From a virus (Duplodnaviria > Heunggongvirae > Uroviricota > Caudoviricetes): DNA of 18,658 nt. A program made the position numbers and the translations under genes. Below, piece by piece: positions 1,872 to 15,371 of this stretch (the stretch's first letter is position 1; each line of letters opens with the position of its first letter). The DNA lies in IMG/VR virus record IMGVR_UViG_3300028453_000031, one strand, 5' to 3'. The notes beneath the pieces were generated by a model. It ran no database searches and was not told the origin of the DNA. It saw only the letters and a program-made list of their open reading frames with translations.

Positions 1872-2109
1872 GAGTTAAAATCTCCTTCAGTGCGTCATCA
1901 TCGTCAGTATGAATTTCCGGCGCAATTCCTGTTTCACCAGGACCCACAAATACTGCTCGGCGATCTATCAGCCAACGCCCACGGATTTTTTGTGGCCTTG
2001 GAACGATGTATCCCAGTTTTCCGTATTTCACCAGGGTAGAGTTTGTTATTGGGAGACTGAACCGTTTAGGCTTCCACTCGTCGAGCGTTATCAGGTACTG
2101 TTCGCTCAT
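1840..2109 (-). CDS. xis: Excisionase (Xis-like)
   Basis: MSEQYLITLDEWKPKRFSLPITNSTLVKYGKLGYIVPRPQKIRGRWLIDRRAV resembles lambda Xis (YLTLQEWNARQ...PPPVKDGREYLF). ATG at 2109 has a GGAG 8 nt upstream; the 3' end overlaps the int start. Confidence 0.8.
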   Translation of the reverse strand: MSEQYLITLDEWKPKRFSLPITNSTLVKYGKLGYIVPRPQKIRGRWLIDRRAVFVGPGETGIAPEIHTDDDDALKEILTHVTEATKKQH

Positions 2110-2170
2110 GGCCATCACTCCGGAATGCGCCAGTTGCAGAATAGCAACTACAACTGGCGACGGTTGAACA

Positions 2171-4627
2171 TTAAAAATCAGCCTGACTCGGGATCAGTTT
2201 TTGCCAGATGGCTGAAACGTATTTTGCCTGGTAACGCGCATCGTGCAGGGCGTTATGGCGTTCACCTTCGAATGGAATAGTCGTTCTTGCGTCGAAATCC
2301 ATCACCAGTCCCAGAGCAACCATCGTTCTTACATCGCGATCATTGGTATAACGCCACGGGCAGGGGATCCCCTGCCGTTCATATGAACGGCGTAAAATCA
2401 CGTTGTCGAAAGTTGCACCGTTACCCCAGACCTGAACAAAAAATTCACCGGAGTTTTCGTCGATAAATTCCCGCAATTGTAACAGTGCATCATCTAACGG
2501 GATTTCATCGGTCATAATGGCAGATTGCGCTTCGCGTGATTGCTTAAGCCACCATTTAATGGTGTCCCGATCAATGACTCCGCCAGCAGTTTCCAGATCG
2601 ACAGTCTTACTAAATTCCGGTCCCATATCTCCGGTTTGCGGATCGAAAAATATTGCACCTATTGAGATAATCGGGGCATCAGGATTTTTTCCCATGGTTT
2701 CAAGGTCGATCATTAGATGGTCACACGTCCTGCTGGTGGATGTGATAACGTGATGACCGTTCACCGTAATTAAGGGATCTGCCGTCTCGTCAGTTTCACT
2801 ATCGCTGGCGTGGTCCTGAGCGCTGCCAGCATTCTCCTTGCGTGGATGTTCAGCGCCTTCCATTTTCTCCGAATCGTCTTCCTGAACTTCAACCTGGTTC
2901 TTGTCATCGAATGTTTCCTGGTATGTTGCGTCGCCCATCACCGCACCACAATCAGGGCAGTTGCCGCCACCGCTCTGACCGCAGGCGGTGCAGATCTTTT
3001 CCGGTTCTTGTTGCACTACTGGTTCAGGTTGTTTCGTTTCTGGCTCGTTTTGTTGCGTATTTGGGCTGTTTTGTTCCGCTTTCTGGTCGTTCTGTTCCGT
3101 TTCTTGCTGGTTCTGGTTCACAGAATCGCGGGTTTCAATCCCCTTCACCCATTTAGGATCATTCGGATCGCTAATCCCTTCAACAAATTCACCACGCGAT
3201 ACAGCAAGCAACTTATCGGCATCAGGCTGGCTGATACTGGCTGCCTGCATAGTTTTGTTTACTTCGTCAGCGGTGACTTTTAATTGGTTAGCGGAACTCA
3301 CCTGCGACTGAGCATCCAGCGACTGCGCGTCCTGGCAATGTTCAGTTGTATCCGGTTCCATTCTTTCAGTTGTTGCCTGTTCACCTGCCATTGCGTCAGA
3401 TGGTTGTGGTTTTTCTTTTTCTGTTTCACGCTCAGTAACCACCTCGCGGTTAATTTCTTCCAGGATATCTTTTTCCGGCGTATGCCGGGCAGCTGTGAGA
3501 GTTTCCTTGCTGGGGTTCTCGTGATCAGTTTCCGTCAAATAGGCGTTGATATACCCCTGAAGGCGTCCCGGGTAGTGATAAAATTCAGGGTGTGCGCTTC
3601 GGATAAGTGCAAAAATAGCGGCGCGGGAATAGTCCAGAATACCCGGGGTTGCACGAAGTTCTGCGGACCATTCTTTGAACGGACTTTCTTTTTTCAGGAC
3701 GACTTCTTTTGCGCGACGATAAATGCTGCCCGGAATTTCATAAATATTAAAATCCATCGGAAGTGTGGCTGCTGCAATCTCCACATCCAGTGTGTCGAGG
3801 GTGTGTACTAAATTCGGATTGCGATCGGTTTTGTTCCCTCCACCGGCATTAGCACCGGAAGTCGTGCGGGTGATGCGTGAAACACGATTTCCTTTCATCC
3901 ACTCTTTTGTCAGCAGACCGCGATCGGTGTAGTCAGCGCCCAGGTATGCTTCGAAAAAAGCAGTCATCAGCCCCAGGTCTGAATTACCAGGATTAGGGAA
4001 AACCTTGTCAGTGTCACGAACCAGTTTGTGGAGATCGCGAATTTCCAGCGGTTCGAGTTGCGCAGCTTTATTTGAGATGGCCAGCGCGGTAACGGCGGGA
4101 AGTTTTTCATCCTGTGCGTTATGTAATGCACGCAGTTCGCCCCGCGAAACGTGTGTGATCGGTTTTTCGCTGCCGTGCTGTGCCAGCCATTGAACAGGCA
4201 GAATCTGACCTGAAACCGGCAGGAGCATATTCTCCTCAATCTCAGTCATGTCTTCGCTGTTGACGTTGGTATTGTCAGTGCTGGCTGGTTTGTCCTGAAC
4301 AGAGGATGAGGGCGCGATAGGTGAGGGCGCGATAAGTACCATTGTGATACCATCTTCCCCGCCTTTTTCGTATCGGTTGCAGAATTCGGTATCAAACACG
4401 CCTTCCGGAGGAAGGTCATTCACAACGGGTAAATGGACGCGAACAGGTTTTTTAAAATCCTCTTCGTCAAATCCAGCATCGTCCATTGCGACAACACCGC
4501 GTGATATTGCAACCGATAATTTTTTTGCTGTGCGCCAGTAAAAACCGCCTTTAATCCCAAGACGTTTTCTGACTTTGTCATTTTTGGCTTCGTAATATAG
4601 TGCAATTTCTTCTTTATCAGCGCTCAT
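2171..4627 (-). CDS. Large early protein with C-terminal DnaQ-like (DEDDh) 3'-5' exonuclease domain
   Basis: 818-aa ORF. C-terminal motifs: Exo I MIDLETMG, Exo II WGNGATFDNVIL, Exo III HNALHDARY. Central acidic/Gln-rich low-complexity region with CTACG...CPDCG zinc-ribbon-like pairs. GAGG 8 nt upstream of ATG. Confidence 0.8.
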   Translation of the reverse strand: MSADKEEIALYYEAKNDKVRKRLGIKGGFYWRTAKKLSVAISRGVVAMDDAGFDEEDFKKPVRVHLPVVNDLPPEGVFDTEFCNRYEKGGEDGITMVLIAPSPIAPSSSVQDKPASTDNTNVNSEDMTEIEENMLLPVSGQILPVQWLAQHGSEKPITHVSRGELRALHNAQDEKLPAVTALAISNKAAQLEPLEIRDLHKLVRDTDKVFPNPGNSDLGLMTAFFEAYLGADYTDRGLLTKEWMKGNRVSRITRTTSGANAGGGNKTDRNPNLVHTLDTLDVEIAAATLPMDFNIYEIPGSIYRRAKEVVLKKESPFKEWSAELRATPGILDYSRAAIFALIRSAHPEFYHYPGRLQGYINAYLTETDHENPSKETLTAARHTPEKDILEEINREVVTERETEKEKPQPSDAMAGEQATTERMEPDTTEHCQDAQSLDAQSQVSSANQLKVTADEVNKTMQAASISQPDADKLLAVSRGEFVEGISDPNDPKWVKGIETRDSVNQNQQETEQNDQKAEQNSPNTQQNEPETKQPEPVVQQEPEKICTACGQSGGGNCPDCGAVMGDATYQETFDDKNQVEVQEDDSEKMEGAEHPRKENAGSAQDHASDSETDETADPLITVNGHHVITSTSRTCDHLMIDLETMGKNPDAPIISIGAIFFDPQTGDMGPEFSKTVDLETAGGVIDRDTIKWWLKQSREAQSAIMTDEIPLDDALLQLREFIDENSGEFFVQVWGNGATFDNVILRRSYERQGIPCPWRYTNDRDVRTMVALGLVMDFDARTTIPFEGERHNALHDARYQAKYVSAIWQKLIPSQADF

Positions 4628-11257: not shown

Positions 11258-11422
11258 TTAACATTATTATCGGAAATAAAATCCTTAACCGGAGGGATTT
11301 CTGCACCCTCAGAACATCAGGAGGCCACCAGAAATGGCGGTAATGAAAAATTAACCAGAGAGCAATTAATCAAAGAAGCCAAATTAAAAATAGCGGTTGC
11401 GAAATGTCACCCCAATTCAGAG

Positions 11423-11689
11423 ATGGCTAGGGTAGAGGGCGAGCTATTCAAAATTGCACTGGCATCGCTGGAAGCAGAACCGGTGGCATATCAGTATCGC
11501 CTGTGGGATGCGGAATATGATGAATGGGGGGAATGGGAAGATTGCGGAGAATGCGCTTACGAAGGATTTGTTGAGGAAGAGAAACTCCAGGGGGCAGCTG
11601 TTCAGACCCGTAAGCTATACGCCACACCGCCAGTGCCGGTAGTGCCGGAATTTGAAACATGGTTTAACAGCCAGGAGTCAGGGAGATAA
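11423..11689 (+). CDS. Hypothetical acidic protein
   Basis: 88-aa ORF in the same orientation and operon context; weak RBS. Confidence 0.5.
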   Translation: MARVEGELFKIALASLEAEPVAYQYRLWDAEYDEWGEWEDCGECAYEGFVEEEKLQGAAVQTRKLYATPPVPVVPEFETWFNSQESGR

Positions 11690-11692
11690 ATC

Positions 11693-12193
11693 ATGATTAA
11701 TCGTACTAAACTGGAGCACATCCTCGAATATGCCAGGCAGCAGAGGCATATTGGTCAGCATTGTAAAATTCCAGCAGGAGATATGGTTGAAATCGTGGAG
11801 ATTGCCATGTGTAAGACTGGTAACTCTCAGGTAATTCCAGATGAGGTGCTGTCAGCAATTATGAAGGTAGTCAGGATTCGTACCGACTTTGCCGATTTTG
11901 ACGGTGACAGGCGAGGTATCGGTGATTGTCTGGATGAGTCTGAGCAAGAGCTTATCGTTACCATTAACAAATATGCCAGTCAGTTGGTAGTGGAACCGGT
12001 AGTACCTGATGAAGAACGGGAACAGACAGTCACGCCGCCAACACCTGGTAACCAGATTAACGAATTAACCATGTTGGTTAAGCGATTAGCCAGTTCGCTA
12101 AAAAGCGTCAATAAATCAAGCAAGCTACCTGATAAAGCGATGGAATATCTGAAGCAGAACGGACTGGTTGGTGTGGAGGATATTTTACGATGA
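11693..12193 (+). CDS. Hypothetical protein
   Basis: GGAG-rich Shine-Dalgarno before ATG 11693; 166-aa ORF; stop overlaps the next small ORF start (ATGA). Confidence 0.65.
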   Translation: MINRTKLEHILEYARQQRHIGQHCKIPAGDMVEIVEIAMCKTGNSQVIPDEVLSAIMKVVRIRTDFADFDGDRRGIGDCLDESEQELIVTINKYASQLVVEPVVPDEEREQTVTPPTPGNQINELTMLVKRLASSLKSVNKSSKLPDKAMEYLKQNGLVGVEDILR

Positions 12194-12273
12194 CCTGGCC
12201 TGAAGCATTTGCAATTGTAGGCGTTGCTATGGCTATCGCTTTTTTAGTATATGTTATTTGTCGGTGGGGGTAA
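12190..12273 (+). CDS. Small hydrophobic peptide (27 aa), single predicted TM helix
   Basis: MTWPEAFAIVGVAMAIAFLVYVICRWG; ATG overlaps the upstream stop (ATGA coupling). Confidence 0.4.
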   Translation: MTWPEAFAIVGVAMAIAFLVYVICRWG

Positions 12274-12307
12274 AACGTTCGCCGGGATTCACACCAAAGG
12301 AGGGAAT

Positions 12308-12412
12308 ATGTCGGATGATATTTCACTGGCAATGGAAGGCGCTCTGGCTGTTATTGCTGTTGTTATTGTTTACTGCCTGGTTGTGTTTTTGATGGATCGG
12401 CTGGGGAACTGA
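12308..12412 (+). CDS. Small hydrophobic peptide (34 aa), single predicted TM helix
   Basis: MSDDISLAMEGALAVIAVVIVYCLVVFLMDRLGN; strong AAGGAGGG Shine-Dalgarno at 12297-12304. Confidence 0.45.
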   Translation: MSDDISLAMEGALAVIAVVIVYCLVVFLMDRLGN

Positions 12413-12422
12413 ATTCATTGCG

Positions 12423-12656
12423 ATATGGGAATTCCCATATTGGGCAAAAACGGTTTGCTGTAAAGCGAGAGTTAAGTAGAATTGCTGCGGGTGCTTGAGG
12501 CTGTCTGCCTCGGGCATGCCGCCGTAAGGCAGACAGAGAAAAGCCCCAGTTAACATAACGCGTCCTGCAAGACGCTTAACATTAATCTGAGGCCCAATCT
12601 ATGTCTCACAAATGTAGGTTAGCCTCTTACGTGCCGAAGGCAAGGAGAAGCAGGCT
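12423..12656 (+). promoter_or_regulatory. hok mRNA leader region with strong secondary structure; expected location of the antisense (sok-like) RNA
   Basis: 18-bp perfect palindrome ATATGGGAATTCCCATAT (12423-12440); 10-bp perfect stem CTGTCTGCCT / AGGCAGACAG (12501-12510 and 12527-12536); short leader ORF 12601-12660 ending in ATGA at the hok start. Confidence 0.45.
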
Positions 12657-12812
12657 ATGAAGCAGCAAAAGGCGACGTTAATCGCCCTGATCGTCATCTG
12701 TTTAACCGTCATAGTGACGGCACTGGTAACGAGGAAAGACCTCTGCGAGGTACGAATCCGAACCGGCCAGACGGAGGTCGCTGTTTTCACAGTCTACGAA
12801 CCTGAGGAGTAA
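12657..12812 (+). CDS. hok: Hok/Gef family type I toxin
   Basis: 51-aa product MKQQKATLIALIVICLTVIVTALVTRKDLCEVRIRTGQTEVAVFTVYEPEE matches the Hok family pattern (TM helix then TRK.LCE.R.R.G..EVA....YE). AAGGAG 9 nt upstream. Confidence 0.85.
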   Translation: MKQQKATLIALIVICLTVIVTALVTRKDLCEVRIRTGQTEVAVFTVYEPEE

Positions 12813-14316: not shown

Positions 14317-14553
14317 ATGACCGAACGCATAGAATTTGTTTTGCCTTACCCGCCAACGGTGAACACTTACTGGCGACGTCGTGACCTGGACAACATTCTG
14401 AAAGCGCCACTGGATGCGCTGACGCATGCAGGACTACTTATCGACGACGAGCAGTTTGATGAAATTAATATTGTGCGCGGTCTGCCTGTTCCTGGCGGAC
14501 GGCTTGGTGTGAAAATTTACGAAATAACGCATGGCGGGCAGGCAAAAGAATGA
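14317..14553 (+). CDS. rusA: RusA-family Holliday junction resolvase with apparent internal in-frame deletion (78 aa versus ~120 aa)
   Basis: N-terminus LPYPPTVNTYW and C-terminal part RRRDLDNILKAPLDALTHAGLLIDDEQ...GGRLGVKIYEI align to RusA as I recall it; about 40 central residues are absent. ATGA coupling at both ends. Confidence 0.65.
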   Translation: MTERIEFVLPYPPTVNTYWRRRDLDNILKAPLDALTHAGLLIDDEQFDEINIVRGLPVPGGRLGVKIYEITHGGQAKE

Positions 14554-15371
14554 AACTGGAAGATTTACCAAAATACTATTCCCCAAAATCACCGGGTCTG
14601 ACGGATGCATCGGCCTCAACGTCAAAAGATGCGCTGAGTATCACTGATGTGATGGCAGCGCAGGGCATGACACAGAATCGGGCTGAGATGGGGTTTTCTG
14701 CGTTCCTTGGGAAAATGGGCATTAGTATGAATGACAGAGAGCGGGCAACAGAATTGCTGACAGAATATGCACTCAGTCGGTGTGATCGCGTGGCGGCGTT
14801 AAGAAAACTCCCGGCAGAAATAAAACCGGCAGTGATGCGTATTATGGCTTCGTATGCGTTTGAAGATTATGCCCGTAGCGCGGCGAGCAAAAAACAGTGC
14901 CCCTGCTGTCACGGAAAAAAATTTATTGAAAGCGAGGTTTTTACAAACAAGATCCAGTATCCGGATGGTAAGCCGCCAGTGTGGGCAAAGTGCACAAAAG
15001 GCGTGTATCCGTCTTACTGGGAGGAATGGAAAAAAGTCAGGGAGGTGGTAAAAGTTGCCTGTCCGGAGTGTGGAGGGAAGGGAGAGGTATCCACTGCCTG
15101 TAAAGATTGTCGTGGGCGCGGTGTTGCCATTCATCGTGAAGAGTCGGAAAAACAGGGTGTGCCGGTTTTCAGAAACTGTCAGCGTTGTGGTGGGCGTGGC
15201 TATGAAAGATTACCTTCAACGGAGGCATTTAATGCCATATGTAATGTAACCGATGCCATATCTCTTGATACATGGAAAAAAACAGTTAAACGTTTTTACG
15301 ATACGCTGGTGGTGCAGTTTGATATTGAAGAAGCATGGGCAGAACAACAACTGAAAAAGGTGACCAGATAG
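14550..15371 (+). CDS. Late-gene antiterminator Q-like protein (multi-CxxC zinc binding)
   Basis: Position after rusA and before the late promoter and tRNAs. SPKSP...TDVMAAQGM N-terminal pattern and several CxxC pairs. Family assignment is from memory of Q-type proteins. Confidence 0.65.
   Translation: MKLEDLPKYYSPKSPGLTDASASTSKDALSITDVMAAQGMTQNRAEMGFSAFLGKMGISMNDRERATELLTEYALSRCDRVAALRKLPAEIKPAVMRIMASYAFEDYARSAASKKQCPCCHGKKFIESEVFTNKIQYPDGKPPVWAKCTKGVYPSYWEEWKKVREVVKVACPECGGKGEVSTACKDCRGRGVAIHREESEKQGVPVFRNCQRCGGRGYERLPSTEAFNAICNVTDAISLDTWKKTVKRFYDTLVVQFDIEEAWAEQQLKKVTR

Follow-up and report, generated by a model that had tools for sequence, protein, structure and literature searches.

Two putative single-helix microprotein genes upstream of the hok/sok locus in a lambdoid Escherichia coli prophage

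The DNA considered here, called the window, is the whole 18,658-nucleotide (nt) stretch of IMG/VR virus record IMGVR_UViG_3300028453_000031 (Caudoviricetes). It is a lambdoid prophage lying beside potC in Escherichia coli, with 99.9% identity to strain M18 (NZ_CP010219.1). Two short open reading frames, ORF1 and ORF2, follow a gene of 166 amino acids (aa) and precede the hok gene of this prophage. A sequence-only reading had pointed to them as two tandem peptides, each with one hydrophobic helix, and had likened them to type I toxins and small membrane modulators. The two frames and their Shine–Dalgarno (SD) signals are placed as follows.

12175-12179, plus strand: GGAGG, an SD-like motif 10 nt 5' of the ORF1 ATG, within the 166-aa gene
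12190-12273, plus strand: ORF1, 27 aa (MTWPEAFAIVGVAMAIAFLVYVICRWG), a predicted single-helix microprotein whose ATG overlaps the TGA of the 166-aa gene (ATGA)
12297-12304, plus strand: SD of ORF2 (AAGGAGGG), 3 nt 5' of its ATG, in the 34-nt spacer between ORF1 and ORF2
12308-12412, plus strand: ORF2, 34 aa (MSDDISLAMEGALAVIAVVIVYCLVVFLMDRLGN), a predicted single-helix protein

The description of frames of 27 and 34 aa with one hydrophobic helix apiece agrees with the coordinates and with hydropathy, the best 17-aa Kyte–Doolittle means being 2.77 for ORF1 and 3.24 for ORF2. Their translation signals, the ATGA overlap and the ORF2 SD, are credible as well. Further, a purine-rich motif (GGAGG, AAGGTG or GGGGATG) stands a few nt 5' of the ATGA in all seven related DUF551- or ...NQ-ending contexts compared. 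Because the ORF1 ATG overlaps the preceding stop codon, ORF1 is without a 5' untranslated region or regulatory leader. That the two frames are paralogues was ruled out (BLASTP E = 2.9).

ORF1 belongs to a family of strict architecture. The window copy has all four of its features, namely 27 codons, an MxWP(E/D)AF N-terminus, a (C/F)RW(G/W/R) C-terminus and the ATGA overlap; among the instances collected, 169 of 170 have 27 codons and 170 of 170 start at ATGA. Fifteen distinct 27-residue peptides share M1, W3, P4, A6, F7, G11, R25 and W26, and in their helix core variation occurs among hydrophobic residues only. At residue 2, where the overlapping TGA requires an ANN codon, only T, N, I and S occur. 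Variable sites number 14/12/22 at codon positions 1/2/3, and the family median ratio of non-synonymous to synonymous substitution rates (dN/dS) is 0.21 at a median dS of 0.98 (212 pairs, divergent copies), the synonymous bias that had been proposed as a check. Between the window copy and those of 933W, ArgO145, Stx2a_1447 and Av-05, dN/dS is 0.07-0.2 with dS above 1. Most differences between copies of 65-78% nucleotide identity fall at third positions (6/2/14 between the window and ArgO145), and such copies preserve the peptide together with its length, start and stop.

The family is widespread in phages and phage-plasmids. It was found by tblastn in 92 phage records, including 933W, VT2-Sakai, VT1-Sakai, BP-4795, ArgO145 and the Vequintavirinae phage Av-05, and it occurs in 227 plasmid records from Escherichia, Salmonella and Klebsiella. 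These plasmids are mostly non-mobilizable and, among the rows listed, about 84-120 kb long; the two examined in detail are IncY replicons. At least 530 IMG/VR stretches encode ORF1. Among GTDB species-representative genomes, the MxWPEAF pattern occurs only in E. coli, Shigella and two oddities, and a wider taxonomic origin was not traced. Despite this spread, the 27-codon frame is annotated in none of the seven phage records examined, nor in the Sakai RefSeq record; the reference records of 933W, VT1-Sakai and O157:H7 Sakai are among these eight. An extended 45-aa query against a large protein collection retrieved just 18 scattered E. coli and E. albertii 'hypothetical protein' calls, which carry no Pfam domain and mostly have a wrong N-terminal extension. 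ORF1 has no match in Pfam, PHROG, NCBIfam, PADLOC or the Protein Data Bank (PDB), all Pfam and NCBIfam scores falling under the curated cut-offs. Taken from sequence comparison, the case that ORF1 is a genuine conserved gene, the representative of an essentially unannotated phage and phage-plasmid family of Escherichia and Salmonella, appears well supported.

Two database entries from other taxa concern the same peptide (related loci carry the L numbers of this analysis). A metagenome-assembled contig assigned to Pseudobdellovibrionaceae (L094, 1501-1698) holds a 65-aa ORF with an ATGA start whose first 13 residues (MTWPEAFAIVGVA) are identical to ORF1 and are followed by an unrelated polar tail; a search with this 65-aa ORF found no relatives. 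In Xanthomonas pisi DSM 18956, a 431-nt contig (L093) encodes the 27-aa ORF1 peptide with the same residues as in 933W, and a near-identical junction to the hok leader comes after it; the assembly seems to be contaminated with E. coli phage DNA.

The genes whose stop codon ORF1 overlaps are highly mosaic, comprising 51 distinct proteins of 12-473 aa. The motif W-M-x-L-P-E-P-P, which closes DUF551, ends 43 of the 51, and PF04448 was scored in five of the eight upstream proteins tested, one of the five also having Ead_Ea22. A second upstream class, to which the window belongs, has the C-terminus ...NGL(V/I)xxED(I/V)LR. The sequence 3' of ORF1 is variable and consists of ORF2 and hok, of hok directly (933W), of a strong terminator (L091, ArgO145) or of xis-int (Stx2a_1447, VT1-Sakai). 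With variable downstream genes and an upstream gene of Ea22/EaA type, ORF1 thus travels with its upstream partner and not with hok. A 90% cluster shared with 121-aa DUF551 proteins raised the possibility of a DUF551-ORF1 fusion or a programmed frameshift. This was rejected because the 121-aa proteins end ...PPQEVNQ without ORF1 sequence and no conserved slippery site lies 5' of the ATGA.

ORF2 has a different history. It was suspected, like ORF1, of being probably unannotated; that expectation is borne out for ORF1 and fails for ORF2, which is RefSeq WP_072134538.1, a hypothetical protein called in M18 by the NCBI Prokaryotic Genome Annotation Pipeline (PGAP). PGAP also annotates it in O157:H7 FRIK2455 (WP_001278450.1) and in Sakai prophage Sp6 (ECs_5710). 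The Sakai copy was named XECs145 in a ribosome profiling (RIBOseq) study (Hücker et al. 2017, PLoS One, PMC5597208). ORF2 and ECs_5710/XECs145 are identical at 33 of 34 residues, have the same SD, flanks and gene order, and fall in the same protein cluster. The starts of ORF1 and ORF2 correspond to 1550843 and 1550962 in Sakai Sp6. In lysogeny broth (LB), XECs145 gave a transcriptome value of 79.1 reads per kilobase per million mapped reads (RPKM), a translatome RPKM of 346.1, a ribosome coverage value of 4.35 and a coverage of 0.99; in brain heart infusion (BHI), the same four measures were 121.3, 150.1, 1.14 and 0.84 (PMC5597208, S2 Table). Under combined cold and osmotic stress, its translation was nearly gone (translatome 1.1), and the authors predicted an inner-membrane location and noted the ORF as hypothetical in another enterohaemorrhagic E. 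coli (EHEC) strain (PMC5597208). Ribo-seq had been among the proposed checks, and for ORF2 the published profiling backs the reading as a translated small peptide. In the literature, the peptides and their accession numbers led to no source other than the RIBOseq supplement, and ORF2 has no match in Pfam, NCBIfam, PADLOC or PDB, all Pfam and NCBIfam scores being under the curated cut-offs. ORF2 is already known, as an annotated and RIBOseq-supported orphan.

The stretch from ORF1 to ORF2 occurs in about 673 of 5,426 complete E. coli genomes at 90-95% identity. In 50,697 phage records ORF2 has no blastn or tblastn match, a result to which the tblastn low-complexity filter may contribute. From these distributions, ORF2 appears to be a young gene restricted to E. 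coli prophages. Substitutions were sampled from 75 loci with 28 unique sequences, in which variable sites by codon position number 7/4/12. Allele changes comprise 13 synonymous and 12 non-synonymous, compared with an expectation of about 28% synonymous (binomial P = 0.01), in a test of 25 allele changes from redundant, non-random loci in which alleles were counted and not tree events. The synonymous excess is confined to the ORF2 frame, and the antisense frame that shares its wobble positions contains a stop. Most non-synonymous changes are conservative (I/V/L/M, A/S, A/V, D/E, N/S), the exceptions being I20G and Gly33-to-stop. The SD and ATG are invariant in 28 of 28 unique modules. A 1-nt indel in the 34-nt spacer, at which the window differs from 73 of the 75 loci, alters the upstream frame, which argues that the conserved start of ORF2 is the ATG at 12308. 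Taken together, these patterns are moderate but not strong evidence that ORF2 is under constraint.

Comparison with 933W delimits the segment that carries ORF2. That phage lacks the ORF2 segment, and AAACGGTTTGC with the hok promoter region comes straight after its ORF1 stop. In the window, about 175 nt lie between two repeat copies and hold the SD, ORF2 and an 18-nt palindrome. The features of this segment and of the adjoining hok/sok locus are these.

12272-12283, no strand assigned: first repeat copy (AAAACGTTCGCC), the left edge of the ORF2 segment, from the 933W comparison
12423-12440, plus strand: stem-loop formed by a perfect 18-nt palindrome (ATATGGGAATTCCCATAT), at the 3' end of the ORF2 segment
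12447-12458, no strand assigned: second repeat copy (AAAACGGTTTGC), overlapping the probable -35 region of the hok promoter
12489-12662, plus strand: hok leader/sok (Rfam RF01794, 108.9 bits)
12657-12812, plus strand: hok (Pfam HOK_GEF, 9.7e-22)

The palindrome is not followed by a U-tract and is retained with ORF2 in loci without hok. In related loci it varies either within the 4-nt loop or by G-C pairs becoming G-U, so an RNA stem-loop fits better than a protein-binding DNA site.

The Rfam leader and the hok gene confirm that the two ORFs are immediately upstream of hok. From the Rfam match, a -10-like TAGAAT can be placed at 12477-12482 and the start of the leader at 12489. With ORF2 ending at 12412, the two ORFs are 77 nt or more 5' of the hok mRNA leader and so lie just outside the hok/sok locus. 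The ORF1-ORF2 pair is found without hok in L049-L051, with ORF2 intact; ORF2 is thus not a hok/sok component. The idea that either ORF is a mok-like or leader part of hok/sok was rejected, as both are outside the hok mRNA and ORF1 also occurs with neither ORF2 nor hok. In L016 and L059 (about 1950-3000), an insertion sequence with a 362-aa minus-strand transposase sits at the hok SD; hok is removed, and ORF1 and ORF2 are intact. The mok-like frame of the window itself (12601-12660) starts 56 nt before the hok ATG, and its TGA overlaps the hok start (ATGA). At this distance it is out of frame with hok. Most related loci differ here: in 69 of 75, mok begins 57 nt before the hok ATG and continues into hok in the same frame.

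The plus-strand genes around this locus run in the following order.

Plus strand, first part: cro-like regulator, YdaT-like gene, replication genes, DUF1627, DUF977, two hypothetical genes
11693..12193, plus strand: upstream 166-aa mosaic gene, from the ORF list and PHROG matches phrog_924, 24004, 14306 and 660
Plus strand, continued: ORF1, ORF2, hok, rem-like gene, DUF968, rusA, Q-type antiterminator, DNA methyltransferase

The 166-aa gene combines an Ea22/DUF551-type N-terminus with the C-terminus '...NGLVGVEDILR'. In M18, the PGAP annotation covers just its first 162 nt, as a partial DUF551 pseudogene. The ORF is intact in the window and the PHROG matches span its whole length, and 11693-12193 is probably a real mosaic gene under-called by the annotation pipeline. 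The antitermination gene lies at 14550-15371, which places ORF1 and ORF2 2.1 kb upstream of it, in the early region. A role as holin, antiholin or spanin was rejected on this position, since such genes belong to the late lysis cassette downstream of the Q antiterminator. A terminator scan of the plus strand over 11300-12412 predicted none, so the simplest view is that ORF1 and ORF2 close the early rightward transcript as its final cistrons.

The interpretation that the analysis leans towards, with rather more confidence than doubt, is that ORF1 and ORF2 are a pair of genuine but unrelated genes for small proteins, located where the early rightward operon ends, and that they encode putative single-pass inner-membrane microproteins that neither belong to hok/sok nor are type I toxins. 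ORF1 would probably be made by termination-reinitiation or by SD-driven initiation coupled to the upstream gene, and ORF2 would be translated from its own SD. Each peptide would insert in the membrane as a single helix. In both peptides the N-terminus is acidic and one basic residue follows the helix, from which the positive-inside rule tentatively predicts an N-out/C-in orientation. At the membrane, ORF1 would probably work alongside the Ea22/DUF551-type product or share its target. Both peptides would most likely serve, without being lethal, as partners or modulators embedded in the membrane and produced alongside the early phage genes. A bolder version, which is doubtful at present, holds that ORF1 represents an unrecognised 27-residue family obligatorily coupled in translation to the mosaic Ea22/EaA/DUF551 genes and serving as membrane partner or anchor of their proteins, in Stx (Shiga toxin) and other lambdoid phages, in phage-plasmids and in one Vequintavirinae phage (Av-05).

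Several points weigh against the two-gene interpretation. Within the close ORF1-ORF2-hok module, ORF1 shows 3 synonymous and 10 non-synonymous changes, with no purifying signal, unlike the whole family. The commonest O157 allele of ORF1 (L002, L177 and most O157 copies) is A17D, with an Asp in mid-helix. The ORF1 antisense frame is open in 27 of 27 unique sequences. For ORF2, the substitution sample is small, as described. XECs145 was modelled as a longer ORF from an upstream alternative start codon (PMC5597208). Further, since the ORF1-ORF2-hok module is multi-copy in each O157 genome, RIBOseq reads may be multi-mapped. A search of 1.84 billion representative proteins gave seven matches to ORF2, none below 76% identity. 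ORF2 could, on that evidence, be a translated but dispensable young ORF.

This last thought amounts to a rival reading in which only ORF1 is functional and ORF2 is a recent proto-gene or indel passenger, conserved mainly since the module is young. Besides the few and close relatives, it draws on the missing match in phage records, on flanking non-coding DNA that is conserved as much as ORF2, on the absence of the whole segment from 933W, and on truncating or radical variants, including a 32-aa form, L24P and D30V. However, such an ORF does not readily account for a synonymous excess found in its frame only, for replacements that, apart from I20G and Gly33-to-stop, are mostly conservative, or for an invariant SD and ATG. 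The ribosome coverage value of 4.35 and an intact frame in the most divergent, hok-less context also speak against it, and dispensability is judged unlikely. The conservation of ORF1 could instead belong to a nucleic-acid element, be it a joint at which phage modules recombine, a structured RNA or an opposite-strand gene, and not to a 27-aa protein. Mosaic breakpoints coincide exactly with the ORF1 start, and the open antisense frame would fit an opposite-strand gene. So would Shigella phage POCJ13 (L004, 1201-1334), whose ORF1 homologue has an in-frame TAG at codon 3 and whose record annotates two minus-strand 'hypothetical proteins' across the ORF1 region. Yet the antisense frame has no conserved start, its open lengths range over 47-156 aa, and its dN/dS of 0.32 is higher than that of the ORF1 frame. 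Where nucleotide identity falls to 65-78%, the changes concentrate at third positions and the peptide is retained together with its length, start and stop; the folding of the region is not unusual. A nucleic-acid element is, on these grounds, extremely improbable.

The comparison with type I toxins led to the third rival, in which one or both ORFs are type I or other membrane-depolarising toxins held by an undetected antisense RNA. Both are small hydrophobic peptides (under about 60 aa, one predicted transmembrane helix) like neighbouring Hok, and they adjoin a bona fide type I locus. TisB, Ldr, ShoB and DinQ are type I toxins of comparable size and hydrophobicity, likewise with a single helix. 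On the minus strand, two weak promoter-like sites (9/12 matches) lie at 12332-12305 and 12274-12246. However, two such sites compare with 2.3 expected by chance, with no minus-strand terminator nearby, and promoter-like and terminator-like sites around the ORFs are in general at chance level, although these scans are weak tests for an antisense RNA. Rfam finds no family in 12190-12412, and neither strand folds unusually (z -1.31 for plus over 12186-12470, -0.46 for minus); the suggested search for an antisense RNA thus came back without a signal. Neither ORF matches a toxin or defence family in Pfam, NCBIfam, PHROG or PADLOC, described toxin families being Hok/Gef, Ldr, Ibs, TisB, ShoB, Zor, DinQ and others, and neither has its own transcription unit with a long structured 5' leader; ORF1 in particular overlaps the preceding stop. 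Translation at RPKM 346 in exponentially growing O157:H7 Sakai argues against ORF2 as a potent unguarded toxin, and the module is present in several copies per genome. A toxin function is accordingly very unlikely. The likeness to type I toxins holds for size and hydrophobicity and fails for toxin family, antisense RNA signal and separate transcription unit; it is compositional only. 'Small membrane modulators' appears to be the better half of the earlier interpretation, as a putative role.

Known systems help to place the two putative microproteins. ECs_5710/XECs145, like ORF2, stands between a 27-aa ORF and a hok-type locus in Sakai Sp6, and differs in having Gly at residue 20, where the window allele has Ile. 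The Hok/Gef proteins (PF01848; hokW-sokW of Sp5, PMC8621323) resemble both ORFs in being small, hydrophobic, single-helix and prophage-borne, and the ORFs adjoin such a locus; unlike Hok/Gef and other type I toxins, the ORFs have no sequence match, antisense RNA signal, structured leader or separate transcription unit. The hokW-sokW paper does not mention the upstream small ORFs (PMC8621323). Similar in form, with under 50 aa, one transmembrane helix and short polar ends, are regulators of the MgrB/AcrZ type, each of which acts by binding and modulating a larger membrane protein; ORF1 also has conserved aromatic and charged residues at both membrane interfaces. MgrB, AcrZ, MgtS, KdpF and CydX are bacterial small membrane-protein regulators. 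The two ORFs differ from them in being phage-encoded, and there is no sequence relationship. ORF1 is an unnamed new member of the phage-encoded small membrane proteins.

A genetic address for ORF1 is suggested by the lambdoid exo-xis/ea region. This region shifts the outcome of lambdoid and Shiga toxin (Stx)-phage development and has genetic effects on Stx-prophage induction. Its listed small ORFs are orf60a, orf61, orf63, orf73, ea22 and ea8.5, and ORF1 is not among them (PMC4195576). In 933W, ORF1 is preceded by L0141 (annotated as a C4-type zinc finger), L0140 and L0139, and the VT1-Sakai record describes genes of its own as similar to L0140 and to lambda Ea22. For phage 24B, the C4 zinc-finger ORF was equated with orf73, and vb_24B_6c with ea22 (PMC4195576). 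These correspondences make ORF1 an unlisted terminal cistron of the exo-xis/ea region; the placement differs in the window, where ORF1 lies in the rightward replication-nin region.

For ORF2, the analysis adds nothing new beyond confirming an annotated, RIBOseq-supported orphan. The pair also carries a caution, in that a small hydrophobic ORF beside a hok locus need not be another toxin. ORF1 matters modestly, as a strongly conserved gene that is overlooked in all eight phage or Sakai records examined and that is worth annotating, and as a handle on the upstream proteins ending in DUF551, a domain of unknown function according to Pfam. If ORF1 is indeed a membrane partner or anchor of these proteins, it would put the exo-xis/ea region at the inner membrane.

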